Position numbers and translations under genes: made by a program. DNA of 64,000 nt from the NCBI GenBank assembly GCA_009927045.1, contig RFNT01000062.1, positions 3,971 to 67,970 on the forward strand, written 5' to 3'. Source of the DNA: a bacterium. Lineage in GTDB: Bacteria > Bdellovibrionota > FAC87 > UBA2466. Below are positions 6,139 to 64,000 of the stretch, piece after piece. Below the pieces are notes generated by a model. That model was not told where the DNA came from. It saw nothing but the letters and a program-made list of their open reading frames with translations, and searched no databases. Position 1 is the stretch's first letter. Every line of letters starts with the position of its first letter.

Positions 6139-7054
6139 AGACCCCCCTCTTGGTTTTTCTACCGTTCCAACCGGCCTCCACATACTTCCGCAGTAAAGGA
6201 GCTGGTCGGTATTTTGAATCGCCCAAATCTCGATGGAGCACTTCCATCACAAATAAACAGACATCCAGTCCTACAAAATCAGCTAACTCAAGAGGACCCA
6301 TGGGAAAATTACACCCCAGTTTCATGGCTGTATCGATGTCCTTAGGTGAAGCTAGGTTTTCCTGCAATGCAAAAAATGCTTCGTTGATCATGGGCATTAA
6401 AATACGATTCACTGCAAATCCAGGAGCATCTTTGGCTTCGATGAACACTTTTCCCATCTTTTCAGCCACACTCCGTACTATCTGAAAACACTCATCACTG
6501 GTCGCAAGACCCCGAATGCCCTCTACAAGCGTCATGATGGGGACAGGATTCATAAAGTGCATCCCTGCAACCCATTCCGGGCGCCGGGTATGACTAGCAA
6601 CTTCAGTAATAGAAATAGAGGAAGTATTGGTTGCTAAAATCACCCCCGGGTCTAAGAGTTGATCGAGATCCGAGAAGAGCTTGAATTTGACTTCCCGATT
6701 TTCAGTAGCGGCTTCAATAATAAACTGGCACGGCTTTAAATCAGATAACTGGGAGGTGGTTTTTAAGCGACGTAAAATCCCTTCAGGAGACTCCTGCAGC
6801 TTTCCCTTCTCCGCCAGCTTGGACAAACTTTTTGAAATCGCCTGAACAGCTTTTTCTAACTGAAGGGAAGAGATATCGAAAAGAACGACGTCGTAGCCCG
6901 AAGCCGCAGCCACTTGAGCAATCCCATTGCCCATAGTTCCTGAGCCAATAACGCCTAAACGTTGGATGGGCCGAGCTTTGATGTCTGACACGATGTAGCA
7001 ACCTCCGACGGCTTGATCAGAGGGTAAAGTACCAATGGGAGAGAAGGTCGTCAA
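6128..7054 (-). CDS. hbd: 3-hydroxybutyryl-CoA / 3-hydroxyacyl-CoA dehydrogenase
   Basis: '[16 protein letters not shown]' Rossmann motif and a C-terminal 3HCDH domain; 308 aa, typical for Hbd. Confidence 0.85.
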
Positions 7055-7133
7055 ACGGAGGCCTTAAAAGAATTCGGCCCAGAAAAGCCGATGCTTTTCC
7101 GGGCCAAAAATTCTTAAGATTCAACGGTTGTTA

Positions 7134-9245: not shown

Positions 9246-9275
9246 GACACCATGAAATTCATCGGAGAACACAAC

Positions 9276-9529
9276 ATGAACTACACCTCAGTACTCATTG
9301 CCTAGCTCTCTCTTTAGCTTCTGTGGGCAGCGCCCAAGTGGTGCTGCCTGCCAGCTCAGATTACAACGACCCTTATACTTATTATCGAGATTGTGTAGAT
9401 AGAAACGGCGAAGAGAACCGATCACTGTGTGAAAACCACACGGGCACGCTTTTTCCTGAAGAAGATAAAGCTCCTGTAGATGCAGAAGACGACTACGCCT
9501 CGGCAGAAACAGTCAACTCTTCCTACTAA
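9276..9529 (+). CDS. Small secreted acidic peptide (about 85 aa), apparently split by a 1-nt frameshift in the signal peptide
   Basis: 'MNYTSVLIA' (ATG 9276, frame 0) plus 'LALSLASVGSAQVVLPASSDYNDPYTYYRDCVDRNGEE...' (listed ORF 9323..9529, frame 2) join into a textbook signal peptide. The break is at a CC run near 9299-9301. Confidence 0.35.
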
Positions 9530-9541
9530 AGGTGGAAAAGA

Positions 9542-11230: not shown

Positions 11231-13041
11231 TGTGTCTCCTTATGGTTTCCCACCAAGATTTTCAAATAGTGCGGATTCATATAAAACATGATCGCAATTC
11301 CCAAAGTCATCAGAAGAGAACCTAAATATTTGAGCACTCTACCGGGATCGTGATTAACTGCGAAGACAGAGACTGCGGGCTGCCCGGGAGACAATTGATA
11401 ACTTGCTTGATAAAAATAGTAGCCTCCATATTTCAAGGGCTCATTCATACTAATAGTCGCTTTTTTATCCGATTGAGCCTTCGGATCTTTTACCGTGACG
11501 TCGCTGATAAAGCTGGCAGCAGTATTAGTCCCAGGATTCGTCCCCATCGTAAACTTATCTAGATAGAGCTGAAAAGGAAGGGTCATCCGGTCACGATGGT
11601 ACTGAACAATCAGATCCCCTGACGAAGCAGCAACACTTTTTCCCATTCCTTCCAAAAGCCAAAAGGCAGGCGTGTTTCCCACGCGCATTCGGACAGCCGT
11701 GAGAAAGGGCTCATCAGCTCCCTGTAAAACTTCGACTGAACGCGGCTCTTCATCCAGCACGGAACTGGGAATCCAGTCTTTGAGGGACAACTCAATGTCC
11801 ATCCAGCCAGTAGCAACTTTCTCTCCGGCTTTGAGTTGCCCTTCTCCATTCACAGCTCCCGCACTTGATAACACGCGATACAATATTTTCGACCGATCCG
11901 CTGATTGCGCTAGGAATAAATGCCCACGCGCCCTGCCCACCCCGCGCAATGACTCTTCTTTTTCAGGACCTCGATAGGATAATGTCACACCCAGAGGATT
12001 TTTCTTGTTTTTAGCCCCTTGGTGGAGCGTATTGAACTCAGGGAACAAAGCAAAGACGGTGTGCTTCTCGGGTGGTGTTGCCTGCCCCATCTCTCTCACT
12101 TCCACTTCTACGGCCGGATTCACCGGTTCCTGGCTTTTGGAAATGAGTTTTTTCCCGTCAACAACAGCGTAAGGCAAATAGCGTTTGACTTGGATTTCTA
12201 ATTTTACTTCTTCCAGTGGTCTCCACTTACCCAATAATTCAGAAACCTGGAGGGCAAAACGCTTCCCTTGAACTTCGATGAGCAAACGCCCCTGATCTTT
12301 TCCTTTTGGCTGAGGAGCCTTAGGCTTTCGCTGAAAAAAAGCCTGCTCATCAGCGCTCGTTTTCAACGCTTCAAATGTCACGATTGCAGGACCTAAATTC
12401 AGTTCTGCTCGCTCGGTTTTTGCTTCTGGCCTTAACCATTGTTCAATTTGGAACCGACTGTTGGTGAGCCCCACTTTAACAGCGGGCAACCCAATCCCTG
12501 GAGTGGGACTGGGAACCATTTTGGTCTCTGGGATCGCGCGAGGGATAAACTTTTCGATTTGGATCTGTTCTCCCCCTGCCAAATCTACTTGCATTAATTT
12601 TCCTACTTTACTCCGGTGGAACTCAGGAACAGAAAACATTTGGGTGGTACCCGTTCGCTGATCGGTTACCGTCAACTTTAAGTCATTCAGGATCACTTCT
12701 TGGCTTTGCTGCTTTTCGGGAATAGGCATATTGCCATCCAATCCGAACTGCTGAGTCACAAAAGCCCCGGCCAAAATCACAATGATTCCTAAATGGGTGA
12801 TCACAAACCCAGTTTGTCGCATTTTCCAGGGGTATCGAGACATGGCTGCGCAGAACACATTGAGCCCCAACAAGAAGAGAACCCCTCCAAACCACCAACG
12901 TTGGTACACCACGATTTGAGAACCACGCATGCCGTAATAGCTACCGACAAAAGTAGCAAAGGCCAAAACGGCAGATAACAGCAACAATGAAAACACTGCC
13001 AACTTTAAGGATGAAAAAAATTTAAAGAGTCCTTTAATCAT
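11227..13041 (-). CDS. ccsB: Cytochrome c biogenesis protein CcsB/ResB
   Basis: ResB-type N-terminus 'MIKGLFKFFSSLKLAVFSLLLLSAVLAF' and a large periplasmic domain. It lies immediately upstream of ccsA with a 4-nt overlap. The listed start (13113) overlaps the upstream gene by 80 nt, so I used the internal Met. Confidence 0.8.
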   Translation of the reverse strand: MIKGLFKFFSSLKLAVFSLLLLSAVLAFATFVGSYYGMRGSQIVVYQRWWFGGVLFLLGLNVFCAAMSRYPWKMRQTGFVITHLGIIVILAGAFVTQQFGLDGNMPIPEKQQSQEVILNDLKLTVTDQRTGTTQMFSVPEFHRSKVGKLMQVDLAGGEQIQIEKFIPRAIPETKMVPSPTPGIGLPAVKVGLTNSRFQIEQWLRPEAKTERAELNLGPAIVTFEALKTSADEQAFFQRKPKAPQPKGKDQGRLLIEVQGKRFALQVSELLGKWRPLEEVKLEIQVKRYLPYAVVDGKKLISKSQEPVNPAVEVEVREMGQATPPEKHTVFALFPEFNTLHQGAKNKKNPLGVTLSYRGPEKEESLRGVGRARGHLFLAQSADRSKILYRVLSSAGAVNGEGQLKAGEKVATGWMDIELSLKDWIPSSVLDEEPRSVEVLQGADEPFLTAVRMRVGNTPAFWLLEGMGKSVAASSGDLIVQYHRDRMTLPFQLYLDKFTMGTNPGTNTAASFISDVTVKDPKAQSDKKATISMNEPLKYGGYYFYQASYQLSPGQPAVSVFAVNHDPGRVLKYLGSLLMTLGIAIMFYMNPHYLKILVGNHKETQ

Positions 13042-13978
13042 GAGACAAAACCTCTGATGAGGAATTGTACCACCGAATACGAATGAAGGGACTGATTTGA
13101 ACCGCTTCATCATTCTCCCAAAAGCTTTTTTTGATGTAGGCCAGTCCCACCCCTCGAGAAGGTTTTTGGGGGTGAACTAAAATCGATTTAAGCTGACCCA
13201 TTTTTTCAGTCCCTTGTGAAATTTCCAAATCGGGAGCTTGGGAAACATCAGTACTGGTGAGCTCAGCTGAAACTCGCAACAGCTTCTTATTCACTTGGCC
13301 ATATGTAAAAATACGCTCAACCACTTCCTGTCCCGGGTAGCACCCCTTGTTTCGGGCCACTGCTTTTTCCAAGCCGGCTTCGAGTACTAATTCGGACTCA
13401 CTGAGCTCCCATCCCAGCCAAGGAACCCCCGCTTGCACTCGAAAAAAATGGAACAGCTGCATCCCTAAACGGGCCAACCCCCGAGCTTCCCAGTTCTGAA
13501 ATTTTTCCATTTGCTGATGACGATCAAAAAAATGCCAGTAAAGACTGGGTCTCCATGCATCCACCCAAACGTTTTGAAGATCCAGAGGTTTTTTATTCCA
13601 AAAACCCACTAAAGCATAATTCTCAGTGCAATCCTTGATGACAAGACGCTCTTGAAAATGAAACTTCTCAAAGTGCTCCAAAGAAAGCTGTCGCTGATTG
13701 GGGGCGGTCATCCACAAGTAACGTTCCGAATGGACTCGGAGCAAATTTCCGATAACTACGACTGTCCCGCGCCCAGTTAAAAAAGCACCTGGAGCGAGCT
13801 GCCCATCTTCCATTGTTTTTAAATTCACTGTGGAAAGTCGTTGCAAAAAGTCTTTGGAATCGGGGCCTTCAATTCCAATCACTCCCCAATCGCTCAGATC
13901 AAAATAACCACCGGATTGGGCCAACTCATAATCGCGCTGATAATCATTCGTCATCAACGAGTCTTGCATAACGGACAC
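13034..13978 (-). CDS. Folate-binding protein, YgfZ/GcvT aminomethyltransferase-like
   Basis: Conserved 'KGCYPGQE' motif of the YgfZ family; 314 aa. Confidence 0.65.
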   Translation of the reverse strand: MSVMQDSLMTNDYQRDYELAQSGGYFDLSDWGVIGIEGPDSKDFLQRLSTVNLKTMEDGQLAPGAFLTGRGTVVVIGNLLRVHSERYLWMTAPNQRQLSLEHFEKFHFQERLVIKDCTENYALVGFWNKKPLDLQNVWVDAWRPSLYWHFFDRHQQMEKFQNWEARGLARLGMQLFHFFRVQAGVPWLGWELSESELVLEAGLEKAVARNKGCYPGQEVVERIFTYGQVNKKLLRVSAELTSTDVSQAPDLEISQGTEKMGQLKSILVHPQKPSRGVGLAYIKKSFWENDEAVQISPFIRIRWYNSSSEVLSHD

Positions 13979-15420: not shown

Positions 15421-16504
15421 TTATTTCAATGGCTTAGCGGAGGGAGGGAGGACTTGGGCAGTGGGTAGCGCTTTAGAGAGAAAAAAACCAAGACTTCCCC
15501 CCAGCAAAAACACCAATGCGAATGCCGCCCACAAGGGCAGCCGACCGTTTCGAGAGGGACGAATCTGGTCTTGATAAGAAACCGTCGGAGCCACTAGAGA
15601 TTCATCATCCAAAAATTTCAAAATGAGGTCGGGAGCATGGTTCGTTTTGTGAGCCCCCAAATAATGCTCCAACCAGGTCACTATTTCATCAATAGTTTCA
15701 AATCGATTTTCTGGCTTTTCTCCAACATTTCTCAATCATTTGGTCAATGCTTCGCGGAATGGCACTATTCATGGCTCGAGCAGAAATAAAGTCACAATCC
15801 CGAATGCGCTGAAACACGGTTTTACTGCCCTCTTCTTTGAAGGGACGAGTACCCGTCAGCATTTCATACAAACAAATGCCCACTAAAAATATATCGGATT
15901 GATAGGTTAAAGGATCTCCCAGCACTTGCTCAGGGGATAAATAGCAGGGAGAGCCCACCATCATTCCTGGACGAGTCAGGGTATGGTTTTCGGTATCCAT
16001 CACGATGCCAAAGTCCATGAGTTTGACTTCCCCTCGAGAAGTCAGACGAATGTTAGACGGCTTAATATCTCGATGGATTAAATGATGCTTGTGAATATAG
16101 GCAAGCCCGCGGCAGACCCCCAACAAAATAGCCAATGCGATTTCAGTGGGAATAGCCCCCACCCGCTGGATGACCTGCGAAAGATCTACTCCTTCAATAT
16201 ATTCCATGAAAATAAAAGCTTCTTTTTCTGACTCGAAAAAATCATAGACATGTGCCACGTTTTGATGGAGCACACCCGCCAAAGCTTTGGCCTCTCTTCT
16301 AAAACGCTCACGAGTTTCAGAGTTTTCCAATAGATGCGGTTTTAAACTTTTGACAGCAACAAAACGATTCAGTTTGGGTTGCTTTGCTTTAAAGACAATT
16401 GCCATTCCTCCCGTTGCCAGCGGCTGAATATCCTCTAGCCCTCCGGGCACGAGTCCTCTGCTCTGCAAGGACAGGGGAATTGCGATGTTCTTTTTATCTT
16501 CCAT
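15421..16504 (-). pseudogene. Ser/Thr protein kinase with C-terminal TM tail, frame broken at about 15700-15735
   Basis: Catalytic domain (ATGGMAIVFKAK, HRDIKPSNI, DFG, SPEQ) in ORF 15698..16504. Subdomain XI 'EKPENRFETIDEI' plus a TM helix continue in ORF 15421..15735 in another frame. The junction 'aaatgttggagaaaagcc' lies at T/A runs. Confidence 0.7.
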
Positions 16505-27784: not shown

Positions 27785-28831
27785 ATGCAAAATTTAGAAA
27801 CTGGCTTTGCATCCACAACTCAAGGCCCTACGGATACCCAAAAGATTCAAATAGAGGAGGATGCGGCAGCGCTTAAAGCGGTCATGACTGAAGTCAGCAA
27901 AGTGATTGTGGGGCAAGAGGCTATGATCCGCTCATTGCTTCTAGGCTTGCTGACTGATGGCCACGTCTTACTTGAAGGACTCCCAGGTTTAGCAAAAACT
28001 TTAGCTGTAAAAAGTTTAGCCTCTGTACTGCAGGCCAAATTTCAGCGGATCCAATTTACCCCAGATCTACTGCCCAGTGATTTAGTGGGTACGATGATCT
28101 ACCAGCAAGAGACGCACCAGTTTATTCCTAGAAAAGGTCCCATTTTTGCCCATCTCGTTTTGGCAGATGAGATCAATAGAGCTCCTGCCAAAGTTCAAAG
28201 TGCATTGCTCGAGGCGATGGCAGAGCGACAAGTCACTATCGGAGAGACCACCTTCCCGTTGCAATCTCCATTTTTAGTTCTTGCGACGCAAAATCCCATC
28301 GAACAAGAGGGAACTTATCCCCTTCCCGAAGCCCAACTGGATCGTTTCCTGTTTAAGGTAAAAGTGGGGTATCCCAATCGACAAGAAGAAAAACTGATCA
28401 TTGAACGCATGGGCTCTGCCCAAACTCCGTCCACCCGGCAAATTCTCTCTACGGGACAAGTGCTGCAAATGAAGGAACACCTCAAATGGATATACACAGA
28501 TGCCCGAATTGAGGATTATATTCTTAGATTAGTTCTGAGTACTCGCAGAGAAATTCCACTTGAAGCTCACGAAGCCGATCTTTCGCAACTTAAAGATATT
28601 CGTGCCTCTATACGCATTGGAGCTTCTCCGCGAGCTTCTTTATTTCTTTACCGTGCAAGCCGAGCCCATGCCTTTTTGAACAACCGGCTCTTTGTGACAC
28701 CAGATGATGTCAAATCGGTTGCTTTTGAAGTTCTCAGACACCGTCTCATTCTCACTTTTGATGCAGAGGCTAGAGGCTTGAATACTGATCAAATCATTTC
28801 TCAGCTTCTTAATACGGTTACGATTCCCTAG
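27785..28831 (+). CDS. moxR: MoxR-family AAA+ ATPase
   Basis: Walker A 'GLPGLAKT', 'VLADEINRAPAKVQSALLEAMAERQVTI'. It is the first gene of a bat-type operon. Confidence 0.85.
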   Translation: MQNLETGFASTTQGPTDTQKIQIEEDAAALKAVMTEVSKVIVGQEAMIRSLLLGLLTDGHVLLEGLPGLAKTLAVKSLASVLQAKFQRIQFTPDLLPSDLVGTMIYQQETHQFIPRKGPIFAHLVLADEINRAPAKVQSALLEAMAERQVTIGETTFPLQSPFLVLATQNPIEQEGTYPLPEAQLDRFLFKVKVGYPNRQEEKLIIERMGSAQTPSTRQILSTGQVLQMKEHLKWIYTDARIEDYILRLVLSTRREIPLEAHEADLSQLKDIRASIRIGASPRASLFLYRASRAHAFLNNRLFVTPDDVKSVAFEVLRHRLILTFDAEARGLNTDQIISQLLNTVTIP

Positions 28832-28836
28832 AGCAC

Positions 28837-29715
28837 ATGAATACTCAGTTTCATTTCCGGTCCGAACTCATCCACGCTATTGATCTGCTTGAGCTCAAAC
28901 CAAAACAGCGGCTGGCATCTCCTTTTGTAGGAGAACACGAGAGTCACTCGCGTGGCGCAGGGATGCACTTCAAGGAATTCCGTCCCTATGAATTTGGGGA
29001 TGATATTCGCCACATCAGCTGGACCACCACTGCTCGCACTGGGAAACCCACATTAAAAGTTTACGATGAAGAACGAGAAATCCATGTCTTTATTATAGTG
29101 GACATCAGCGGTTCTTCTCTGTTTGGTTCTGGGAATCGACGTAAAATAGATATGTATGCCGAGGTCGTGGCACTCGTCGCAATGAGTGCCCTCAAGTATA
29201 ACTATCGATTTGGATCCGTCTTTGCTGATTCTGAGGTTCAGTCTTTTTCTCCTCCGACCAGAAAAAAGGAAGAAATTTTATCCGGAATCAATCAGCTTCA
29301 GACGCTTAACCTGCAAAAAAGACAAAGTGATCTTCGACCTGCACTTCAGCTGTGTAATCGATTACTCAAACACAAGACACTTCTGATCATCCTCTCGGAC
29401 TTCATTGTTCCTGCTTTTCAAGCTGAATTGCATGCTCTGAGCACCCGACATGAAATTATTTTAATGCAGGGATATGACGACTCTGAAAGATTCTTGTCTA
29501 GCAAAGGTATTTCAGAAATTTGCGATCCGGAGACAGGTCAGTTTTTTGTTATGGATTCAGAATCCCCCTTTTGCAGAAAAGCAGTTCAATCTTATTATGC
29601 AACTTTTTTACTAAACCTCGAAAAAGTCGCACAGCAATGCCGTGCCGACTTTCTTCCATTGAGCGTACAAGATGACTACCTTCAAAGAGTGGTTCATTTT
29701 TTTAATGAACGCTAA
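28837..29715 (+). CDS. DUF58 family protein (vWA-like partner of MoxR)
   Basis: 'FKEFRPYEFGDDIRHISWTTTARTGKPTLKVYDEERE' DUF58 signature. Confidence 0.8.
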   Translation: MNTQFHFRSELIHAIDLLELKPKQRLASPFVGEHESHSRGAGMHFKEFRPYEFGDDIRHISWTTTARTGKPTLKVYDEEREIHVFIIVDISGSSLFGSGNRRKIDMYAEVVALVAMSALKYNYRFGSVFADSEVQSFSPPTRKKEEILSGINQLQTLNLQKRQSDLRPALQLCNRLLKHKTLLIILSDFIVPAFQAELHALSTRHEIILMQGYDDSERFLSSKGISEICDPETGQFFVMDSESPFCRKAVQSYYATFLLNLEKVAQQCRADFLPLSVQDDYLQRVVHFFNER

Positions 29716-30550
29716 TTTGTTCTGGTCGTTAAGCGCCTGGAGCTTTAGCTTTGAACTCACGAAACCCAAGATCCAAGTTGGAGAATCTACTTTCCTAAAA
29801 ATCCACCTTCCTTTAAACGGAAACTCCCAACGCCCTATTATTTTCGATGATTTGCTCACGCAAAATAAGAATCTTAAACTTCTGGAGCACCAGATTGTAA
29901 AAACTGATTCAGAATATGAAATCAGTTTTGAACTCACTGCTCACAGTTCCAAAAAAGTTTCAATCCCTCCTATTCAAATCCAGTTAGGCCCCGATACATT
30001 TTCAACCGAAACACTTGCCTTAGAGGTTTGGTCCTCTCGAGATCCTAATGACACGGAAATTCGTGCGGAGTTTGAACCCCTTCAGCTTCCTATTCCATGG
30101 AAGAAACTTTTTAGTTACTTTATATGGTCAATCAGCGGACTTTGCTTTTTCTGGATTCTTCGAAGAACTTTTTCTCGCATTCCGTGGAAACGGCTATCAC
30201 TCCAACTTCATGCTGTCAAAATGCCTAATTTGGAAAGCAACCGAATGTGGCTCAAAAGACAACTCAAACGCATCCGTTCAGAAAGGCAAAATCGAGCGAA
30301 CCCCCTCGTGCTCGCAGATGACTTGAGCTTTGTGCTTAAAACATTTCTTGAACGTCAAACCCACACTCCAGCACTTTCTTGGACCGCCCAGGAAATCGTA
30401 GCGCAATTGCCTCAACTAACTGCACGCCCAGGTAGAAGAACCGTATTGGCTCATATCGATTCCGTGAGATATCAGCCCAAACAAGGAATGACTTACGAGG
30501 CTGTCATCGATGAACTGATTGATCAGGTAGAAAAGGAATTCTTGAAATGA
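29705..30550 (+). CDS. Hypothetical membrane protein in the bat operon (signal peptide, extracytoplasmic domain, one TM helix, basic tail)
   Basis: Located between DUF58 and batA. 'LFSYFIWSISGLCFFWIL' is a TM helix. I preferred the internal start 'MNANLFWSLSAWSF'. Confidence 0.4.
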   Translation: MNANLFWSLSAWSFSFELTKPKIQVGESTFLKIHLPLNGNSQRPIIFDDLLTQNKNLKLLEHQIVKTDSEYEISFELTAHSSKKVSIPPIQIQLGPDTFSTETLALEVWSSRDPNDTEIRAEFEPLQLPIPWKKLFSYFIWSISGLCFFWILRRTFSRIPWKRLSLQLHAVKMPNLESNRMWLKRQLKRIRSERQNRANPLVLADDLSFVLKTFLERQTHTPALSWTAQEIVAQLPQLTARPGRRTVLAHIDSVRYQPKQGMTYEAVIDELIDQVEKEFLK

Positions 30551-31593
30551 CTCAGTGGCTGTTTCACATGGCTTTTTGGGGATTTTTGCCCCTTCTAGGA
30601 ACTAGCCTCTACTTCGTATTCAAAAGAAAGAGTGAACAGGATTCTCTTTTGGTGCGCATGCCGGGTCCTTGGAGTGAACTCAAGCAACTGATGCGTCGGA
30701 CTCGCTGGGCATTTAGACTTTTGTTCCTTTTACAAATTCTCGCTCTTTCGCTCATGGTGATTGCTCTAGCGCGTCCGATTCGGACCAAAACGCTCATCAA
30801 CAAATCTACTGAGGGCGTTGATATCGCGATTGTTCTCGATGTATCTGAAAGCATGGATGCTGAAGACCTCACTCCCAGCCGGATCCTTGCGGCAAAACAA
30901 GTGATTCGTCAGTTCATAAATCAAAGGCCCAATGATCGTATCGGTTTGGTTGTTTTCGGAGGGGAATCTGTCATGAAGTCGCCTCTCACCCGAGATTTTC
31001 CATTTTTGCTCCAACAAGTAGATAATATTAAGCTGAGAGAACTCAAACAGGGTACAGCTATTGGTTTAGGAATCACAAATGGACTTTCCCGTCTTCGCAA
31101 AAGCCAATCAAAAAACAAACTCATCATTCTTTTGACGGATGGAGACAGCAATGTCGGTTCCGTTAATCCGATGACTGCAGCTAAACTAGCTGCTCAAGAG
31201 GGAATAAAAATTTACACAATTGGAATTGGACAGGAAGATAGAGTGGTAGTTCCTATCTATTCTTATGACTCTCAAGGACAAAAGATGCATTTGATTGCTC
31301 AAGTACCTTCCTACCTGAATCCTCAGCTACTAAAAGAGATTTCGCAACTCACGGGTGGAAAGAGCTACATGGCTCGCGATTCGGGCATGTTGTCCAGAGT
31401 GCTTCAAGAAATCGACAAACTGGAAAAAACCAAAGTGAAGATATCGGCCACGCCCGAGACAGAGGAGTTGTTTTTATATCCAGCTATTCTGGCAACAGTA
31501 CTTATGGCGATTCTCTTTTTATTATCTGAAACTCGATTTCAAAGACGGCTCAAGGAACCATTACGACATGAACTATCAGCTCGCGCAACCTGA
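30547..31593 (+). CDS. batA: BatA-type vWA domain membrane protein
   Basis: N-terminal TM helices followed by the vWA MIDAS motif 'VLDVSESMDAEDLTPSRILAAKQVI'. Confidence 0.8.
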   Translation: MTQWLFHMAFWGFLPLLGTSLYFVFKRKSEQDSLLVRMPGPWSELKQLMRRTRWAFRLLFLLQILALSLMVIALARPIRTKTLINKSTEGVDIAIVLDVSESMDAEDLTPSRILAAKQVIRQFINQRPNDRIGLVVFGGESVMKSPLTRDFPFLLQQVDNIKLRELKQGTAIGLGITNGLSRLRKSQSKNKLIILLTDGDSNVGSVNPMTAAKLAAQEGIKIYTIGIGQEDRVVVPIYSYDSQGQKMHLIAQVPSYLNPQLLKEISQLTGGKSYMARDSGMLSRVLQEIDKLEKTKVKISATPETEELFLYPAILATVLMAILFLLSETRFQRRLKEPLRHELSARAT

Positions 31594-33112
31594 GGCGCTT
31601 TGGGGGTTCATTCCCTTACTTTGCCTCATGATTTATTGGTTATGGAAGAGAAAGCATCGCCCAACTCTATTTTCATGGCGAAGATTTTGGTGTGGAACTC
31701 TGGGTTTCTTTTTTGCTATTTTAGGCCTAGCACGCCCGCAAAGTGGGTCACTTACAGGTATGCCCGAACCCGTTGCTGCCAATCTCATTCTCGCTGTCGA
31801 TATCTCAAACAGCATGCTAGCGGAGGATATTACCCCCAGTCGTTTAGGATTTGCTTCCGCCTTCATCCAACATATCACCGAATCCATGGTTAAACCCCGA
31901 GTAGCGTTGTTTCCATTTGCTGCTTCAGGCTTTCTCCAACTCCCCCTAACAACAGATATCTTTGCCCTCCAGGAATCACTTTCTGCTTTGGAACCCACTG
32001 CAACTTCACACCAAGGAACAGACTATAATGAAATGCTCACCGGCTTGATTTCCAATATCAACCAATTGGAGCAGCAGGCTCAAAATCAACTTGAGGGATG
32101 GCATACGCCCAGAGTCCTGGTCTTTTCAGATGGTGAACCCCAAACTCCTTTGGATGAAACTTTGTTGAAACCGTTCATCGCAAAAAAGATTCCCATTTTC
32201 ACCGTTGGTGTTGGAACTACCGAGGGCAGCACTATCCCAGTAGCAAGCCCCTTCGGAAAGCGAGAGACTCTGAAGGATCCTCACTCGGGACAAACTGTGA
32301 TTACTCGCTTAGATGCTCAACCCTTGCAGGCGATGGCACTTCAAACGGGAGGTGCTTATTTTTCGGCCTCCTATAAGAACATTCCAACTCTGATATCTCA
32401 ACTCAATCAATCTCTGGCTCTTGGAAGAAGAAATTCTCAATTTAAGGTTCAGCAGGAATTGTTTCCGTTCTTTTTGGCTCTGAGTATCCTTTTTTTCTTC
32501 ATCGAGTTTTGCTCCGGTCGTTGGCAGTTTGTAATCCGTGCTCTTATTTTCGTTTTGTTTTGCGGAACTTGGAATCCGGCTCATGCAGAGGACGATCAAA
32601 CCCGCGCGATTGAGGCCTATAATCAAGGGCTCAAAGAAATGTCGCAGGGCAATCTCAACAAAGCTGCTGAACTCTTCGAAGAGAGCACACTCATCTTCCA
32701 AGACAACTCAGATCGGAAGAAAGCACTCTACAATCTAGGAAATACATTTCTCAAAATGGGAGATCCTGAACAAGCTCTTGAGAGCTATCAGAAAGCCTTC
32801 AGAACAGAGGCACGCTCAACAGAATTAGAGAACACTGCTAATCAACGCATTTCAGATAATATGGCATTGGCTGCTCAATTGGTCGAAATGATGAAAAAAC
32901 AGCAGAAGAACCAACCAGGAAATGATGACAAAGACGGCACTAGCGATCCAGGTCAAGACCCCAAGGGCCCGCAACAATTTCAAGGTGAGGCTTTGAATGA
33001 GAGCCAAAAGAAAAAACTCTACGACCTGATTGCAAGCGAAGAAAAAGAAACCCTAAAGCGAATTCGAGAAAAAAACAAAGCCCCCAATTCATCTAACGGT
33101 AAGCCATGGTAA
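31568..33112 (+). CDS. batB: BatB-type vWA domain protein with C-terminal TPR region (BatB/BatC fusion-like)
   Basis: 'LAVDISNSMLAEDITPSRL' vWA motif and C-terminal TPR repeats 'AIEAYNQGLKEMSQGNLNKAAELFEES...'. Confidence 0.8.
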   Translation: MNYQLAQPEALWGFIPLLCLMIYWLWKRKHRPTLFSWRRFWCGTLGFFFAILGLARPQSGSLTGMPEPVAANLILAVDISNSMLAEDITPSRLGFASAFIQHITESMVKPRVALFPFAASGFLQLPLTTDIFALQESLSALEPTATSHQGTDYNEMLTGLISNINQLEQQAQNQLEGWHTPRVLVFSDGEPQTPLDETLLKPFIAKKIPIFTVGVGTTEGSTIPVASPFGKRETLKDPHSGQTVITRLDAQPLQAMALQTGGAYFSASYKNIPTLISQLNQSLALGRRNSQFKVQQELFPFFLALSILFFFIEFCSGRWQFVIRALIFVLFCGTWNPAHAEDDQTRAIEAYNQGLKEMSQGNLNKAAELFEESTLIFQDNSDRKKALYNLGNTFLKMGDPEQALESYQKAFRTEARSTELENTANQRISDNMALAAQLVEMMKKQQKNQPGNDDKDGTSDPGQDPKGPQQFQGEALNESQKKKLYDLIASEEKETLKRIREKNKAPNSSNGKPW

Positions 33113-34362
33113 AAAAGATCTCGATTTCATTTTCGTTTTTTTTAGCAGCTGTCTGCATGGCCGATTCTTTGGAATTTCGCCTTCAGCTTTCCAAACCCAC
33201 TTTTTTCGAGGGAGAAAAAGTGACTGCTACTTTTCTCCTTGAGGCAGATAAAGAAAATGTGATTGAAGTCGAAGTGATCAAATTCCCTGAATTTCGTGGC
33301 TTCTGGAGTGAAAACCTCATGCTCCGACAAGGGCCTATCCACCTCACACCTACCGCTCAGAAGGGGAAATTCGTAGCTGTTATTGGTTCCTATGCTATTC
33401 AGTCCATTTTGGAATACAAAAGCGCTGAAGTCCGACCGATGAAGCTTTTGATCAAAGGCCTCACTCCAGAACCATTCACGTTGGAATCTGTCAGTGTTCC
33501 TAATAGAATTTTATCTCTTCCCCCGATCCCCCCTGCTCTACAAAAAGTTCCCTTTTCAGGAGGTGTTGGTAACTTCGCTCTCTCCGTAGATAACCCGCAA
33601 GTCGTTTTTAGAAAGGGCGAACCTTTTAAGATACGAATCACATTGAGCGGGGAAGGCAACTTTTCTGAAATCAATACGCTTCCTATCCGCCCGCCTGCTG
33701 ACTTCACAACGGTCTCCCAAAATTCATTTCAAGATGCTTTTTTGGGCAGAAGCAGAAAGTTTTTTGATTGGGTTTTCAGTACAGAATCCGATACTGTTCG
33801 ATCTTGGAAAATAGGAAGCTTCTTATTTTTTGATCCCCAATCGAGCCGATATCACGAATTGGAATTACCTGAAATTCAATTTTCCCGTCTGGAGGAGCCT
33901 AGTTTACCGGAGAATCTCCTCCGGAAACAAGCCATCGCATTTGAACCAAAATCAACCTGGTCTAATGGATCCTCTCATTCAATTCTGATAAGCACTTGGA
34001 AAGTGACTTGGGCACTAGCCCTTGCAGCTCTCAGTTGGATTATCTTTTTTCAGCAGAAAATGTTTCGCATCACCCGAGCAGCCGATCCCAAGCGGTGGTG
34101 GAGGGCTCAGAAGAAAAAAGTAGAACACGCTCTCCAAAAGCAGGATTGGTCGACGTTTGTTCCTCTTGCGGCTCAGCTGGTCAGAAAGCATCTATCTGAG
34201 CGAGGATCGCTCCCTGAGAAAGGCCATTTGCTTTTGGAAGCCGATCATCAATTGCGCTTCAGTCCTGACAAAAAACTTCAGCTGTCCCCGGAAATGCTCC
34301 TTCAGATCTGGAGTGAAGTGGCACAAGACCTCGGCGCAAGTTCCCAGGATCCCTCTAAATAA
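33106..34362 (+). CDS. BatD-like oxygen-tolerance protein
   Basis: Signal peptide, a large extracytoplasmic domain, one TM helix 'WALALAALSWIIFF' and a cytoplasmic tail. Its position after batB supports the call. Confidence 0.55.
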   Translation: MVKKISISFSFFLAAVCMADSLEFRLQLSKPTFFEGEKVTATFLLEADKENVIEVEVIKFPEFRGFWSENLMLRQGPIHLTPTAQKGKFVAVIGSYAIQSILEYKSAEVRPMKLLIKGLTPEPFTLESVSVPNRILSLPPIPPALQKVPFSGGVGNFALSVDNPQVVFRKGEPFKIRITLSGEGNFSEINTLPIRPPADFTTVSQNSFQDAFLGRSRKFFDWVFSTESDTVRSWKIGSFLFFDPQSSRYHELELPEIQFSRLEEPSLPENLLRKQAIAFEPKSTWSNGSSHSILISTWKVTWALALAALSWIIFFQQKMFRITRAADPKRWWRAQKKKVEHALQKQDWSTFVPLAAQLVRKHLSERGSLPEKGHLLLEADHQLRFSPDKKLQLSPEMLLQIWSEVAQDLGASSQDPSK

Positions 34363-58108: not shown

Positions 58109-58701
58109 TGAAAAAATTTCAACGTGCTTTTGTGACTGGGGTCCTTGTTTTGGTGCCGCTGTTCATCACCATCAACATCTTCCGCTGGTTTATCGAAGCA
58201 GTGGATGATGTCGCAAAACTTTACTTACCTGCTTTCATTTTAAAACTCGATTTTCCTGGTTTAGGGCTCGTCATTGCTGTGGTGCTCATCATGCTCATCG
58301 GGGTGCTCGCACAAAACTTTGCAGGGGAATGGCTTCTCAATGTGTTTGATAGCGCTTTGAGGCGCATCAAATTCATTGGGGGCATCTATGGAGCTATTCG
58401 AAAAGTGTTAGAGACCATTTTCACGCCTGGAAGCAATCGTTTCAGTGCGGCTGTTCTGCTCGAGTTTCCTCGTAAAGGCATGTACTCGATTGGATTCCGC
58501 ACTGGAAAACCGGATCCTAAAATTCCGGCGCAAGCAGAATCCCTAGTGAATGTCTTTGTACCTCTCACCCCCAATCCCACTTCAGGGTTTTACGTCATGG
58601 TTCCTGAAAGCGAGGTCACCCCACTCCCTATTTCTGTGCAGGAAGCTTTTAAGTTGGTCATTTCGTTAGGCATCGTCACTACGGAAGAGGCCCCCAAGTG
58701 A
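58105..58701 (+). CDS. DUF502 family membrane protein
   Basis: Two N-terminal TM helices plus a conserved DUF502 core. Stop/start overlaps on both sides place it in the panBC-smpB operon. Confidence 0.65.
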   Translation: MMKKFQRAFVTGVLVLVPLFITINIFRWFIEAVDDVAKLYLPAFILKLDFPGLGLVIAVVLIMLIGVLAQNFAGEWLLNVFDSALRRIKFIGGIYGAIRKVLETIFTPGSNRFSAAVLLEFPRKGMYSIGFRTGKPDPKIPAQAESLVNVFVPLTPNPTSGFYVMVPESEVTPLPISVQEAFKLVISLGIVTTEEAPK

Positions 58702-59180
58702 GCGAAAAAGAAACGGGCGGCGGTGGCATCAAGATCATTTGCGATAACCGAAAAGCCGGCCACCACTATTTTTTAGAAGACCGTTTTGAAGCCGGAATTG
58801 TTCTTACTGGAACTGAAGTAAAATCCTTGCGAACAGGAAAAGCGAATTTGCAAGATGCTTATGCCATTTTAAAAAATGGCGAGTTATTTTTGATCAATGC
58901 CCACATTGCACCTTATGCCCTGGGCAATCGTGCGAATCACGAACCGCTTCGAACTCGAAAGCTTTTGGTACATAAAGCTGAACTCAATAAACTCTTTGGA
59001 AAATCGGAAGTGCGCGGGTTCACTCTTATTCCCACCAAAATGTATTTCAAAAAAGGCCGTGCCAAAGTGGAAATTGCTCTCGCCAAAGGAAAAACTGGAA
59101 TCGACAAACGCAAAACCACCCAAGAACGCGAAGCGAAGCGTGAGTTAGCAAAAGTAGCTAAGCGAGCGCAACGAGGCTGA
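58698..59180 (+). CDS. smpB: SsrA-binding protein SmpB
   Basis: 'GIVLTGTEVKSLR', 'LLVHKAELNKL' SmpB signatures; 160 aa. Confidence 0.9.
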   Translation: MSEKETGGGGIKIICDNRKAGHHYFLEDRFEAGIVLTGTEVKSLRTGKANLQDAYAILKNGELFLINAHIAPYALGNRANHEPLRTRKLLVHKAELNKLFGKSEVRGFTLIPTKMYFKKGRAKVEIALAKGKTGIDKRKTTQEREAKRELAKVAKRAQRG

Positions 59181-59265: not shown

Positions 59266-59961
59266 ATGAAAACCTTCTTCGCACTCTCCTGTTTCATCTT
59301 CACAGGCCTTGCCCTCTCCGATGCGGGCCTCCATGAAAAAACAACTTCAAAGCTTCCTTCGAATGTCTTAAAAAAGGCATCGCGTCCCCTAGCCAATGAC
59401 GCATTTGATCTCGAAGGCATTCCACTCACTGCGGCGGAAGTGATGCAAGGCGATTGGGCCCCAGATGAAGAAGGCGGGTGTGATCTCGTAAAAGGCTGCG
59501 CCTATAAAAATAAAAAAACGGGCGAAGTTCGCTATATATCAGAAGCAGAAAAAAAGAAGCTTGCGATAAAAAAAGAGGAGGCTTCACAAGAGGAATCTCC
59601 CTCCAAGTCTTCTGGCATCAAAGAACTCAAAGACCAAGGGACTTATGAAGCAGCTTTCACCAGCAGCACCGATAAAAAAGCACTCGTGATGGTTTTCAGC
59701 GCTGAGGACTGTCCTCCTTGTCGAGCTCTCAAATCAAAGCTGCAGAATGGGTCCTTTGAAGACCTCGCCATTTATACCGCTACACGGCCCAGCTATCGCT
59801 CAGTTTCAGGTCATCCCCTCCACGAGGATAAGAAAGCAGCACTCGGAGCCGGAGTCCCCGTTGCTTTTATCTATACAAAAGATGAAAACGGGAAGTGGCA
59901 GGGCAAAACTTTTCGTGGAAGCCAAATCTTTCCAGCTATCGAAGCGGTGAATTCTCCATAA
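59266..59961 (+). CDS. Secreted thioredoxin-like protein (CPPC motif)
   Basis: Signal peptide 'MKTFFALSCFIFTGLALS' and 'LVMVFSAEDCPPCRALKSKL'. AAGGAG lies 5 nt upstream of the ATG. Confidence 0.55.
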   Translation: MKTFFALSCFIFTGLALSDAGLHEKTTSKLPSNVLKKASRPLANDAFDLEGIPLTAAEVMQGDWAPDEEGGCDLVKGCAYKNKKTGEVRYISEAEKKKLAIKKEEASQEESPSKSSGIKELKDQGTYEAAFTSSTDKKALVMVFSAEDCPPCRALKSKLQNGSFEDLAIYTATRPSYRSVSGHPLHEDKKAALGAGVPVAFIYTKDENGKWQGKTFRGSQIFPAIEAVNSP

Positions 59962-60010: not shown

Positions 60011-60118
60011 ATAGCCGATTTTCACATTCTTCAAATTTCCAACCCACTGAATTTCCTTTGATTTTGCAATGCCCTCCCTGGCCGAAGTTTTGAATACTTT
60101 CCGATCAAAGGATTCATT

Positions 60119-63100
60119 ATGCAATACGGAACTAGGGGTCCAGGGACCTTCCATCGGTGGTTTTCAAAGAGTTTATTGCTTGGGCTGACTGCTTTAGTAA
60201 GCCTTGAAGTTGGGTTTGCAGAAACTCAAGGTCAGCACAATCCAGGGTTATTCAAACGGCGGCCTCTTGCCCGTATCCGAACCTGGCTGAGGGGCACTGA
60301 TTTAACCATCAATATGAATGGTTCCAAAGCTTCGTGCCAGAGTACGCCCGTTGCAAAAAAAGAATTGGATTCTCCTGCCGGTATGTGCCGAGTTGCTTTT
60401 TTAACGGCCGCTCATTGTGTGGATAGCAAAATGAAATCGATTGATATTGCGGGCCTTGGCGAAGTGCCCATATCCAGCATGAAAATCAGTATCCCCGATG
60501 AATATTTCCGAACAGGTGGCGGTCAAAGCCGTGAATCCCACCAGGGCGATAGCGCCACACTCATTTTTGATATTTCATGTGACCGCGCTGAAAATGTGAT
60601 TCCGGTGCCTTTAGCACCCACCTTAAGAGATGGCACTACGGCCATCACGACAAATCACGTGTATCTCCAAAAACGCCAAGAAGAAACTGTTGGGAATCGG
60701 GGTGAGGGCGCTCAAATCAAAGCGGATGTGACGAGTCAGGGCGGAAACATGTTTGAGTTTTTTGCGCCCTCTCCACAAGGCTATGCAATTGTGGGAGGGG
60801 ACTCGGGCGGACCTGTTTTTAATGAAAAAGGGCAATTGATTTGTCCTATCTCTGGTTCTTCTTATGAATTCAAACGAGAAACTGGCCAACTCACTCGACC
60901 TCGCAATAGCGAAGATTCTGTTTTAGATCCCTTCACAGTGATTTGTGATAAGCGCGCGATTGCACGCTTGAAAGAAGATTTAAAACGATTTGGCTTAACA
61001 CCCGCGAGTGGTTTAGAAGCCGGTGATGCTGTGGCCGATGCAGGCTCCTCCGCGGGAGCAGGCTCTCAGCGGCCTCTTGCAGGAGCGGCAGGTACTCCAG
61101 CAACACTTCCTCAACTTGGACAGCTCCCTTCCCTGGGAGGCGAAGAAGGAGAATGTAAGGATGGTGTCTGTCGCATCCCCGACCAACACGGACCAGGGGC
61201 TTTTTTAGGGGGTACAGATGCTTTGCCGGGTCTTCAACAACGGGCTCAATCTCAGTTACCAAGTGAATCAGAAACCCCTCAGATCCCACCTCGTTCCTCG
61301 GGAGGATTTTCTGAAGTGGGTCCTGTCAGAGCAGCCGATTTAGAAAATGTGATGGCAGAAGCTAAGAAAAAGGGCTTCAAACACATTGTTGTTCGGTATG
61401 GGAACGATGCTCGCTGCAAATACTGCCGTGACTTGCGAGAAGAACTCCGTCGTCAATTTGGAAGCGACAGCGATGTGATGGTCATCAAAGTAGAAGATGC
61501 TCGTCCCATTGCAGGCGAAGGCATTCCCCAGTCCCAGCTTTTTTCCCTGGATGAAACCAAAGGCGATTTCGAGCAGCAAGGGGGAACTCGAGTCGGCGCA
61601 GGCCACGGACGAGCCTATAAAGAACAAGTGAAATCCGAACGCACGGAACAGGCACAAGAGCGTCAACAAGCAACGCGGCCCGAGACTCCTGCACCTGAAC
61701 GGTCTCAGCAACAGCAAGCGCAACCGCTTCGCGATTCACGACGCCAAGAACAAGCTCAACGACCTGCAACTCCCGCCCCCCAACAAGCTCCTCCTCAGGA
61801 GCCCAGTCGATTGCCTTCTACCGACGAAGACACTATTGCAGCTCCAGAAGCACCTCGTAATGTCTTCAATGGCTACCAGTATAAAGCAGCAGAGGAAGGC
61901 GGCGGGCTTCACTTCCTGAAAACCGGAGAAACCCCTTCTGCTGAAAATGGAATTTTCCTGAAGAGATTGCCCGATGGCACTCGTAAAGCTGCAAGAAAAG
62001 ATGCTTCTGGGAAGTTGGAATTCTTGCCTGAGGATGTTCAAGACGGACTTCGTCAGTACTACACCGCTCACCAAGATAAAGTGGCTCACTTGCCAGAAAA
62101 ACAACGTGGCTATGTAGAAAATTTCATTCGTGGAACGGCTGCCGCTACACCACCTGCTGAACAACTCAGAGCAGAGGCACCTCAACAACAGCAACCCCAG
62201 CAAAAGCCCGAGAATCACCAATCTCCGCAAAAAGAAGAAAAGCCAAAAGAAAGACCCCAAGCTGAGAAACCGGCCGAGAAGCCGGAAGTCACTGCAGAGA
62301 ACGCTGTCGACTTTGAATGCGTCGCCAGTAAAGGGGGCTTCGCACCCAAGCGCAGAGGAGAGAATTTTAGACCACTCGGGGCCAGTGTATTTAAGGACAA
62401 AGCGCTGTGTGAACGCGCTGTTGCCAACTCTAAAAACGGTGCTGTGTGTAGTTTTACTGGCATTGGATTCAAACCCACTCATTTCAGTGGTTCTATTCCT
62501 AAACGAACAGATTATGGCTACTTAGGCGGATCCTCCATCACCAACTTCGAAGATTGTTTAAAAGCTACTCTCAATGCGACCGACAAAGCAATTTGCTACT
62601 ATGGCGGCGAAGGCACGCGGTGGTATTCGGGCGATATTCACGGCACGAATCAGCATCCAGCAGGAGTCCCCCGAGGTCCTTTCAATTCCGTAGATGCTTG
62701 TATTGCAGCCATCAACGGGGATGCCGAACTGAAAAAACCTTACGCCAAACTTGCCGAAAGAAAACCAGCTGAGGACAAACCCCAGCAAGAAGAAAAACCC
62801 AAAGCTGAAGTGAAACCTGTACCAGAAAGTAAACCTGCTCAAGATGAAAAGTTGGCTTCATCCCATGCTGTTTTTGGAAACCACTGTGCGGGATGCCACA
62901 GTCCCGGGTCTCAGAAAGTGAATGTGCCGGAATGGGCTACTGATGTGAAAGAATTGCAAAGCCGATTGGCCAGTGCAGACCCGAAAGTAAAAGCAGAGGC
63001 TCAAACTTGGGCTAAAAAACTCCATGCTGTTTTAGTAGAGCACAACAATATGCCCCCTACGGAAGCAGATAAAAAGCGCATGGAAAAAGATCCCCAAGTA

Positions 63101-64000
63101 CAAGCGCTCCGAGCCTTTCTCACTCAGCACCAGAGCCGAGAAGTCGCAAGTGCTCCAGCTACCAATGCAACGCAAGTGCTTCCACCTGAAAAGCTAGCTC
63201 AGTATCGTGAGATGCTTTCTCGAGTGAAAGTAGGCGACCAAGAAATCATGGCAGTATTGCAAGATCCCTCTACTTTGATTTTCGACGATAAGGCGATGCC
63301 AGCTGGGTACCAGGATACATCGCTCCCCGTGCAAGGGTTTCGCCCCAGCGGGCACACGACCTTTGCAGAGGGCGCCCCATTTCTCGATGAGAACAATCGC
63401 CTCAAACTGTTCACCAAAGGGGTTGGAATGAGCGCAGATGCTCAAACGTTCCACATGCTGTCTTTACCCAAAGACGAAAATGGCAAATTAAAACCTGTCG
63501 AATATTGGACTGAAAAAGATGCCAAGGATGGCGGCACGCTCTATCGCTGGCGTTTCCCCGAGGGTACGGTTTCAGTGGAAGCTATTGTACAAAAAGATTC
63601 GCAGGGTCAACCCTATGTAGTCGAGTTGCGCACTCGAAAGAAAGACGGTTTGAACAGTGCTGCTGAAGCAAATATTTTCTCGGCAGCGCCCAGTAAAGAA
63701 GCCCTGGAAACGCGTCTGACTCAAATAGCCCAAACAAATCCTAACTTGGCAGCAGAAGCTAAAGCCATTCAGCGCCAATTGGGTTCTCTAGAATTGCGCC
63801 CCGTAGAAGTTGATAATGGCCAATACCGCACACGCTTTGGGAGTAAAGGTGCTACAGCAACGTTGCCCAAAATGTCTGAGCCTTTGGTAAAAGAACTTTT
63901 GGGTGAACTGAGCTCTGCACGAGGCACTTCTTGGGATCAAGAGGGGGGAAGAACCGCTTTCGCTCCAACAACGGATCAGCAATTTGGTATTGTGCCTTAT
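60119..64000 (+). CDS. Giant secreted multidomain protein (>1294 aa, 3' end outside the window): S1 trypsin-like protease domain, CxxC thioredoxin-like segment, Cys-rich domain, CXXCH heme-binding motif
   Basis: The open frame from ATG 60119 (AAGGA 8 nt upstream) to the window end was checked codon-by-codon and contains no stops. Motifs present: 'LTAAHCV', 'GDSGGPVF' (S1 protease), 'ARCKYCRDL', 'FGNHCAGCHSPGS'. It is absent from the supplied ORF track. Confidence 0.7.
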   Translation, partial: MQYGTRGPGTFHRWFSKSLLLGLTALVSLEVGFAETQGQHNPGLFKRRPLARIRTWLRGTDLTINMNGSKASCQSTPVAKKELDSPAGMCRVAFLTAAHCVDSKMKSIDIAGLGEVPISSMKISIPDEYFRTGGGQSRESHQGDSATLIFDISCDRAENVIPVPLAPTLRDGTTAITTNHVYLQKRQEETVGNRGEGAQIKADVTSQGGNMFEFFAPSPQGYAIVGGDSGGPVFNEKGQLICPISGSSYEFKRETGQLTRPRNSEDSVLDPFTVICDKRAIARLKEDLKRFGLTPASGLEAGDAVADAGSSAGAGSQRPLAGAAGTPATLPQLGQLPSLGGEEGECKDGVCRIPDQHGPGAFLGGTDALPGLQQRAQSQLPSESETPQIPPRSSGGFSEVGPVRAADLENVMAEAKKKGFKHIVVRYGNDARCKYCRDLREELRRQFGSDSDVMVIKVEDARPIAGEGIPQSQLFSLDETKGDFEQQGGTRVGAGHGRAYKEQVKSERTEQAQERQQATRPETPAPERSQQQQAQPLRDSRRQEQAQRPATPAPQQAPPQEPSRLPSTDEDTIAAPEAPRNVFNGYQYKAAEEGGGLHFLKTGETPSAENGIFLKRLPDGTRKAARKDASGKLEFLPEDVQDGLRQYYTAHQDKVAHLPEKQRGYVENFIRGTAAATPPAEQLRAEAPQQQQPQQKPENHQSPQKEEKPKERPQAEKPAEKPEVTAENAVDFECVASKGGFAPKRRGENFRPLGASVFKDKALCERAVANSKNGAVCSFTGIGFKPTHFSGSIPKRTDYGYLGGSSITNFEDCLKATLNATDKAICYYGGEGTRWYSGDIHGTNQHPAGVPRGPFNSVDACIAAINGDAELKKPYAKLAERKPAEDKPQQEEKPKAEVKPVPESKPAQDEKLASSHAVFGNHCAGCHSPGSQKVNVPEWATDVKELQSRLASADPKVKAEAQTWAKKLHAVLVEHNNMPPTEADKKRMEKDPQVQALRAFLTQHQSREVASAPATNATQVLPPEKLAQYREMLSRVKVGDQEIMAVLQDPSTLIFDDKAMPAGYQDTSLPVQGFRPSGHTTFAEGAPFLDENNRLKLFTKGVGMSADAQTFHMLSLPKDENGKLKPVEYWTEKDAKDGGTLYRWRFPEGTVSVEAIVQKDSQGQPYVVELRTRKKDGLNSAAEANIFSAAPSKEALETRLTQIAQTNPNLAAEAKAIQRQLGSLELRPVEVDNGQYRTRFGSKGATATLPKMSEPLVKELLGELSSARGTSWDQEGGRTAFAPTTDQQFGIVPY

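Follow-up and report, generated by a model that had tools for sequence, protein, structure and literature searches.

The DNA analysed here is a 64,000-nucleotide (nt) stretch of contig RFNT01000062.1 (positions 3,971 to 67,970; the window), which ends within a gene that starts at 60119 on the + strand. We refer to this gene as the giant gene. Its product is an exported protein of 1389 residues that very likely carries, on one chain, a serine protease, a thioredoxin-fold CxxC module, two small disulfide or other domains, and a C-terminal unit with two c-type heme sites.

The giant gene encodes a 1389-residue exported protein

A first-pass annotation of the window had proposed an uninterrupted open reading frame (ORF) at 60119-64000. 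Frame +1 from the ATG at 60119 contains 0 stop codons in 1294 codons through 64000, while each of the other five frames of this region contains 27-65. This ATG is the earliest start codon downstream of an in-frame TGA at 60059, and an AAGGA sequence sits 8-12 nt 5' of it. The gene was missing from the ORF list because the listing program omits ORFs that run off the window end. As the annotation had also held, the ORFs on the opposite strand are spurious; they encode at most 248 residues, have a Leu/Phe/Ser/Arg-rich shadow composition, and had no match in a Pfam search.

The metagenome protein P0001, which is carried on JGI as well as ENA contigs and is present in three independent assemblies, is 99% identical to the window protein over the whole query. 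Moreover, 1389-residue members of its 90%-identity cluster have been deposited for three NCBI metagenome-assembled genomes (MAGs), where they are labelled 'hypothetical protein [bacterium]'. P0001 has 1389 residues; therefore, the window protein is without its final 95 residues, and the window contains the 5' 93% of the 1389 codons (60119..64000, + strand), with the stop codon 288 nt past the window end. In total, we conclude that the giant gene is real, that the protein extends past the window, as had been anticipated, and that the full protein has 1389 residues. An NCBIfam search with the whole protein returned only noise.

The N terminus, previously described as signal-like, consists of a basic n-region and the hydrophobic core SLLLGLTALVSL with a Kyte-Doolittle hydropathy of up to 2.45. 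Residues 1-34 (60119..60220, +) are thus predicted to form a Sec-type signal peptide, and we infer that it is cleaved after Gly-Phe-Ala34. The basic motif RRPLARI (residues 47-53; 60257-60277), which directly follows the signal peptide and is kept in nearly all protease-bearing relatives, could be a pro-peptide, a sorting signal or an activation signal. The linkers between the domains described below are 40-98 residues long, of low complexity and predicted to be disordered, with a predicted local distance difference test score (pLDDT) <50 in the AlphaFold2 model.

The N-terminal domain is a divergent S1 serine protease

Residues 45-295 (60251..61003, +) form a divergent serine protease domain of the S1 type, with a predicted chymotrypsin fold. 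The Pfam family PF00089 (Trypsin) scored 27.7 bits over residues 94-247, with a gathering cut-off of 20.6, and matched nine of nine relatives at E <= 0.1; the cut-off itself was reached in seven of the eight relatives that were tabulated individually, the eighth, P0007, scoring 19.8 bits. Trypsin_2 was below its cut-off (21 versus 27.6 bits). The catalytic residues are His99 (60413-60415, +) in TAAHC (residues 96-100), Asp144 (60548-60550, +) in GDSATL, and Ser229 (60803-60805, +) in GDSGGP (residues 227-232), and all three are invariant, together with four Cys residues, in an alignment of nine sequences. Thus, the S1 protease with its triad context stands as first described, and the individual motifs that the annotation had quoted (TAAHC, Asp144, GDSGGP, CKYC and CAGCH) were all found. 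Six positions before Ser229 there is Ala, not Asp, and trypsin-like specificity is therefore not implied. In a PDB sequence search with a family profile, no solved protease was matched beyond the GDSG motif.

The middle region contains a predicted thioredoxin-fold module and two small domains

By composition, the protease is followed by a linker rich in Gly, Ala, Pro, Leu, Ser and Gln (61004..61297, +) that includes the CxxxxC pair ECKDGVC (residues 345-351; 61151-61171, +). The EC..GVC motif is kept in all members of the family that bear the next module, a predicted thioredoxin-fold module at residues 394-518 (61298..61672, +) with the motif CKYC (residues 433-436; 61415-61426, +).

AlphaFold2 was run on residues 385-880 with the family alignment (model m98a4f8eb5eb1). 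In the model, the thioredoxin-fold module has a pLDDT of 78-91 over its first 80 residues and of 65-86 beyond these, and its secondary structure elements follow the order beta-alpha-beta-alpha-beta-beta-beta-alpha with CKYC at the N terminus of the second helix (segment residues 49-52, at the start of helix 50-63). The invariant Pro470 (GIPQS) is placed just ahead of the fourth strand (segment residues 88-94), where thioredoxins have their cis-Pro loop, and the CxxC as well as the following Pro are kept in 9/9 members with this module. When the module was compared with the PDB using Foldseek, the best 50 matches were all thioredoxins or thioredoxin domains of protein disulfide isomerases, with probabilities of ~0.75-1.0 (most >=0.9), E values of 3e-3 to 7e-2, and a target-normalised template modelling score of ~0.5-0.64 for single thioredoxin domains. 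On the basis of the model, we accept residues 394-518 as a predicted thioredoxin fold; the thioredoxin-like CxxC segment noted earlier is in this way supported by predicted structure and by structural matches, but not by Pfam. A PDZ domain in this region, suggested by a weak DegP profile match (E = 0.04), was rejected in view of the predicted thioredoxin fold and the conserved CxxC and Pro. In the family and its paralogues, the CxxC variants (CKYC, CPYC and CPHC) are closer in appearance to oxidising or glutaredoxin-type motifs than to the CGPC of thioredoxin.

Residues 581-675 (NVFNGYQ...HLPEKQR; 61859..62143, +) form a small folded domain (pLDDT 77-88), which we refer to as module C. It is kept in most protease-bearing relatives, and it had no match in Pfam or in PDB sequence searches. 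PDB sequence profile searches with the middle region, the whole family, the C-terminal domain or one divergent member likewise gave no homologue. Further downstream, residues 729-869 (62303..62725, +) form a domain that had been counted as having eight cysteines; by alignment and position, the number is six (residues 734, 764, 777, 813, 826 and 861), all of which are conserved. In the AlphaFold2 model (pLDDT mostly 76-93, with a single dip to 63), this six-Cys domain is built from a beta-beta-alpha unit that occurs three times, and the first strand and the helix of every unit contribute one Cys apiece.

Two CxxCH sites lie in a class I cytochrome domain and in a large C-terminal domain

Residues 910-1005 (62846..63133, +) form a class I c-type cytochrome domain with the motif CAGCH (residues 923-927; 62885-62899, +), in which C923, C926 and H927 are invariant. 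PF00034 scored 28.2 bits on the isolated C-terminal segment and 21.4 bits on the full protein, with a cut-off of 21.3, in agreement with the cytochrome-c-type site reported in the first-pass annotation. Among the relatives, class I cytochrome families were matched by PF00034 in 8/11 and by PF13442 in 10/11, and matches of this region to cytochrome c6 in PDB profile searches were weak. The candidate for the distal Met is in the motif NMPP (residues 977-980), of which MPP (978-980) is shared with the near clade of the window protein, and the class I heme would probably be ligated by His with Met as the second ligand.

A second CxxCH is present 385-425 residues after the first in every relative with the C-terminal region; in the protein of the window, it is CNTCH (residues 1308-1312), past the window end. 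It belongs to a C-terminal heme domain of ~370-380 residues (residues 1010-1389), the first 285 residues of which are encoded at 63146..64000 (+). The annotation had overlooked this domain, from residue 1010 onward, as well as the second heme site and the small domain at residues 581-675; the C-terminal domain and the second heme site escaped notice because part or all of each is past the window end.

While a word-indexed search for homologues of the C-terminal 485 residues returned one protein only, an exhaustive HMMER search with a profile of the C-terminal domain against 1.84 billion cluster representatives brought out a family with 665 representatives at E <= 1e-3 and 335 at E <= 1e-30. 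Most matches are stand-alone proteins of ~370-440 residues that cover only profile positions ~110-490, and these had no Pfam, NCBIfam or PDB sequence match. In an alignment of 80 sequences, which was too divergent for deriving a search pattern, G1101, E1154, R1171, C1308, C1311 and H1312 are invariant; Glu1169, Arg1173, Tyr1343, Asp1350 and two Trp residues are >=95% conserved, and His1356 is 86% conserved. As judged from these sequences, the C-terminal domain is a large, conserved and unannotated CxxCH family.

Any resemblance of the C-terminal domain to the cytochrome P460 fold is weak; we compared the domain with cytochrome P460/c'-beta (PF16694; PDB 7s5o, 6hiu and 2je3). The best PF16694 score, obtained for P0005 only, was 15.6 versus 27 bits; 1/80 members matched at E = 0.22, and no Lys column that could correspond to the P460 heme cross-link is >=50% conserved in the 80-sequence alignment. 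Membership of the P460 family was not accepted, with PF16694 below threshold and the cross-link Lys not conserved. Similarly, PF03150 (MauG) scored 12.9 versus 25.6 bits, and only the 13-residue heme motif aligned.

The genomic context of the stand-alone genes gave no functional clue. One AT-rich branch of the stand-alone homologues (loci L014-L018 and L020; ~23-32% guanine plus cytosine) adjoins SET, DOT1, RCC1, GT25 and GT64 genes and is also found on 87-101 kb contigs filed as viral in IMG/VR. A giant-virus origin of this branch was not supported, as a DUF1559/N_methyl prepilin-type protein, of a kind typical of Planctomycetes-like bacteria, is encoded on the same contig; an AT-rich bacterium of the Planctomycetes-Verrucomicrobia-Chlamydiae type is the more likely host.

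The combination of protease and two heme sites recurs in divergent relatives

In an indexed search, only 11 relatives were found among 5.8 billion proteins. The nine-sequence alignment shows that these proteins are mosaics, in which the N- and C-terminal parts are fixed while the middle modules vary. Among the longer representatives fetched, a GDSG-type protease, a class I CxxCH and a C-terminal CxxCH occur together in ~20 distinct 50%-identity clusters, and the C-terminal domains of the aligned members are down to ~20-27% identical. The recurrence of this architecture in ~20 divergent clusters argues for functional coupling and against accidental fusion. The middle modules of the census members are the thioredoxin-fold module, module C, the six-Cys domain or a module with the motif GGTGK[IL]I[IV]AYFG, and the trio of six-Cys, cytochrome and C-terminal domains occurs without the protease in P0012, P0032, P0033, P0035 and P0039. 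In P0006, P0007, P0010, P0038, P0042-P0047 and P0052, the six-Cys domain is replaced by a ~100-residue module of unknown type with the extended motif GGTGK[IL]I[IV]AYFG...EVRRY..GSPEH...DGLGRK; in most of these proteins, it takes the place of the thioredoxin-fold module as well.

All relatives are named 'hypothetical protein' in the databases, except for two JGI entries named 'cytochrome c553', and literature searches gave no description of an architecture with a protease, a thioredoxin module and two hemes. The first impression that the protein is unusual and uncharacterised is thus upheld. One family member in NCBI is labelled 'Proteobacteria bacterium'. In a scan of 185,579 species-representative genomes with one sequence pattern, the sole relative was in a MAG named 'uncultured Pseudobdellovibrionaceae bacterium'; an earlier scan of genome contigs with the generic pattern GDSGGP[IV]F confirmed nothing. 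The host is probably an uncultured bacterium of the Bdellovibrionota, of the predatory Bdellovibrio type.

Genes for a thioredoxin-like paralogue, a lipoprotein and heme attachment are in the neighbourhood

In the lineages of the window and of P0005, the gene order is tsaD-rsmA-(unknown)-panB-panC-DUF502-smpB, followed by a gene for a secreted protein of 216-231 residues and then by the giant gene. In the window, the secreted protein has 231 residues (59266..59961, +), a weak Thioredoxin_2 match, the motif CPPC and a CxxxxxC pair (GGCDLVKGC). Its orthologue at the same position in locus L003 is 38% identical, matches the thioredoxin-fold module of the giant protein with E = 3e-12, and carries CPHC, the motif of DsbA type. 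By sequence, the upstream protein is a stand-alone paralogue of the CxxxxC and thioredoxin-fold part of the giant protein. Remnants of mobile elements flank the locus in relatives; in L003, a gene for an IS200-type Y1 transposase (6714-7118) is located between the thioredoxin gene and the giant gene. At locus L005, in the Pseudobdellovibrionaceae MAG, a giant gene without the thioredoxin-fold module is followed by a gene (9249-11579) for a 776-residue protein in which CPNGQCG occurs twice and the C-terminal part includes a CxxC segment, and this neighbour may supply the thiol module in trans.

Directly 3' of the giant gene and just past the window end is a gene for a lipoprotein of 302-306 residues with a HELVH (HExxH) motif and the lipobox LFFSAC (L001:14305-15225; 306 residues in L001). 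The L001 protein had no Pfam match. In three lineages (61%, 59% and 49% identity), the lipoprotein gene comes immediately after the giant gene; it is present as two tandem copies in the third of these (L009) and is better conserved than the giant gene. In L001, the lipoprotein gene is followed by a phage-integrase fragment (15683-16225), where the synteny with L003 stops.

The window also encodes CcsA (9542-11230, - strand; PF01578, 103 bits) and ResB/CcsB (11227-13113, - strand; PF05140, 100 bits), ~47 kb upstream of the giant gene. CcsA and ResB constitute System II of cytochrome c maturation, which attaches heme to CxxCH outside the cytoplasm.

An extracytoplasmic redox-linked protease is the most likely function

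Altogether, the giant protein is most likely an extracytoplasmic redox-linked protease. Besides the architecture and its recurrence, this reading is favoured by CcsA and ResB in the window, by the thioredoxin-like gene on the 5' side in two lineages and the HExxH lipoprotein gene on the 3' side in three, and by the Pseudobdellovibrionaceae relative. In the mechanism that we propose, the protein would be exported by the Sec system, and the CcsBA proteins encoded in the window would covalently attach both hemes. The protein would then work as a redox-assisted protease outside the cytoplasm, i.e. in the periplasm of its own cell, in the medium or in prey. The CxxC module may make, break or shuffle disulfides of protein substrates that are cut by the tethered protease. 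By way of the class I heme, electrons may pass between the larger heme domain and either this thiol chemistry or an external partner, and the catalytic or ligand-binding end may be the larger heme domain. We have high confidence in the architecture taken alone and regard the coupling of redox chemistry and proteolysis, taken alone, as a tentative and rather doubtful proposal; for the explanation as a whole, an exported modular protein with this architecture and a redox-assisted protease mechanism, we judge the chances to be slightly better than even. A more specific version, in which the protease carries a self-contained extracellular redox relay that leads from the CxxC to the class I heme and on to a new catalytic heme-c domain reducing O2, H2O2 or another acceptor, is unlikely.

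Several observations weigh against a coupled mechanism. The region of the thioredoxin-fold module (residues 378-527) had no match to a thioredoxin family in Pfam even at E <= 1, and the module is missing in the family members P0004 and L005. The candidate distal Met motif MPP is missing in the divergent proteins P0005, P0006 and P0008. Class I cytochromes c normally have a potential ~0.4-0.5 V above that of a thioredoxin-type dithiol, and thus the class I heme could take electrons from thiols but not give them. Modules are also found apart (in P0012, P0033, P0036 and the upstream paralogue) and, therefore, need not act together. The whole block of genes, including housekeeping genes, is syntenic, so that the linkage of the neighbours may reflect common descent rather than function. 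Finally, none of the homologues is a characterised protein.

The same separate occurrence of modules speaks for a self-processing polyprotein, in which the protease would cut the Pro-, Gln-, Glu- and Lys-rich linkers after export and so free a protease, a thioredoxin-like protein and a six-Cys, two-heme cytochrome: the upstream thioredoxin paralogue is a gene of its own, P0012, P0033 and P0036 have six-Cys, cytochrome and C-terminal domains without the protease, module content is shuffled among the relatives, and disorder is predicted for the long linkers. However, we saw no conserved cleavage motif in the linkers, whose lengths and sequences differ widely, and some of the proteins that look stand-alone may stem from gene calls truncated on short contigs; we consider such processing improbable. 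We also give little weight to a heme-gated protease, in which the C-terminal heme would sense the redox state or a ligand (O2, NO or H2O2) and switch the protease while the class I heme and the thioredoxin-fold module tune the switch.

It is very unlikely that the motifs are non-functional, which would leave a surface protein with a structural or adhesive role, an inactive protease-like domain and CxxCH sites that hold no heme. The protease sequence has diverged strongly and matches PDB sequences in the GDSG motif only, and the heme sites are predicted from sequence; however, relatives that otherwise share 20-50% identity all keep the triad and both CxxCH motifs, the class I cytochrome hidden Markov model scores above threshold, and heme-attachment genes are present. 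An assembly chimera or a pseudogene joining unrelated genes would account for the unusual architecture and for nothing further, and is almost certainly not the explanation: the same 1389-residue product is found in assemblies from JGI and ENA and in those of three MAGs at NCBI, and orthologues that are 88% and 55% identical align with it collinearly from end to end.

Comparison with known systems

The small domains of the giant protein are each of a known kind, while we found no described counterpart of their combination, and the largest domain is outside the curated families. The closest parallel to the first domain in a predatory lineage is provided by the secreted S1 proteases of Bdellovibrio, e.g. 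BspK (PMC5288813), which share TAAHC and GDSGGP with the giant protein, as well as its predicted Sec export and trypsin fold. These proteases are single-domain proteins, whereas in the giant protein the protease makes up ~18% of a 1389-residue chain that also includes a predicted thioredoxin fold and two heme sites. HtrA/DegP resembles the giant protein in that a periplasmic serine protease of the PA clan is followed by a small accessory domain; this domain is a PDZ domain in DegP and is predicted to be a thioredoxin fold in the giant protein. Secreted proteases are central to prey digestion by predators of the Bdellovibrio type, and we know of none from such predators that carries redox cofactors.

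Like the giant protein, the di-heme cytochrome c peroxidase/MauG family (PF03150) has two c-type hemes per chain, of which one serves in electron transfer and the other is potentially catalytic, and the surroundings of the second CxxCH in the giant protein (SCNxCH) are weakly similar to this family. In contrast to MauG, the second domain of the giant protein has ~370 residues, is beta-rich and unrelated in sequence, and the order of the domains is reversed. The SCO1/SenC-cytochrome c protein (PDB 2l4d) combines, as the giant protein does, a thioredoxin-fold CxxC domain with a redox-cofactor domain on one secreted chain. Its cytochrome part is a weak match, and the thioredoxin-fold module of the giant protein has no sequence relationship to SCO1/SenC-type fusions. 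With a protease permanently joined to a predicted thioredoxin fold and two c-type heme sites, proteolysis may be coupled to disulfide or heme redox chemistry outside the cell. The QSOX sulfhydryl oxidases are chains with an analogous combination of thioredoxin and redox-cofactor domains, in which the cofactor is flavin adenine dinucleotide and not heme. To our knowledge, neither the SCO1/SenC-cytochrome c family nor the QSOX family includes a protease.

If the redox-relay proposal were correct, the predator would gain disulfide chemistry together with proteolysis where no DsbB/DsbD membrane partner is available, and the giant protein would function as a heme-based counterpart of QSOX and represent a new heme enzyme family with >600 sequence clusters. 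The family of the C-terminal domain (at least 665 clusters) is the larger prize, as its fold and reaction would annotate hundreds of environmental proteins; the protease, the thioredoxin-fold module and the class I cytochrome, as fusion partners, are the first functional clues to it.

Other features of the window

At Rfam gathering thresholds, the 64-kb window contained no RNA gene and no tRNA, and there was no tmRNA beside smpB (58698-59180). A run of MoxR-ATPase, DUF58, vWA and TPR genes at 27785-34362 (+) resembles, by eye, a BatA-BatB aerotolerance-type operon.

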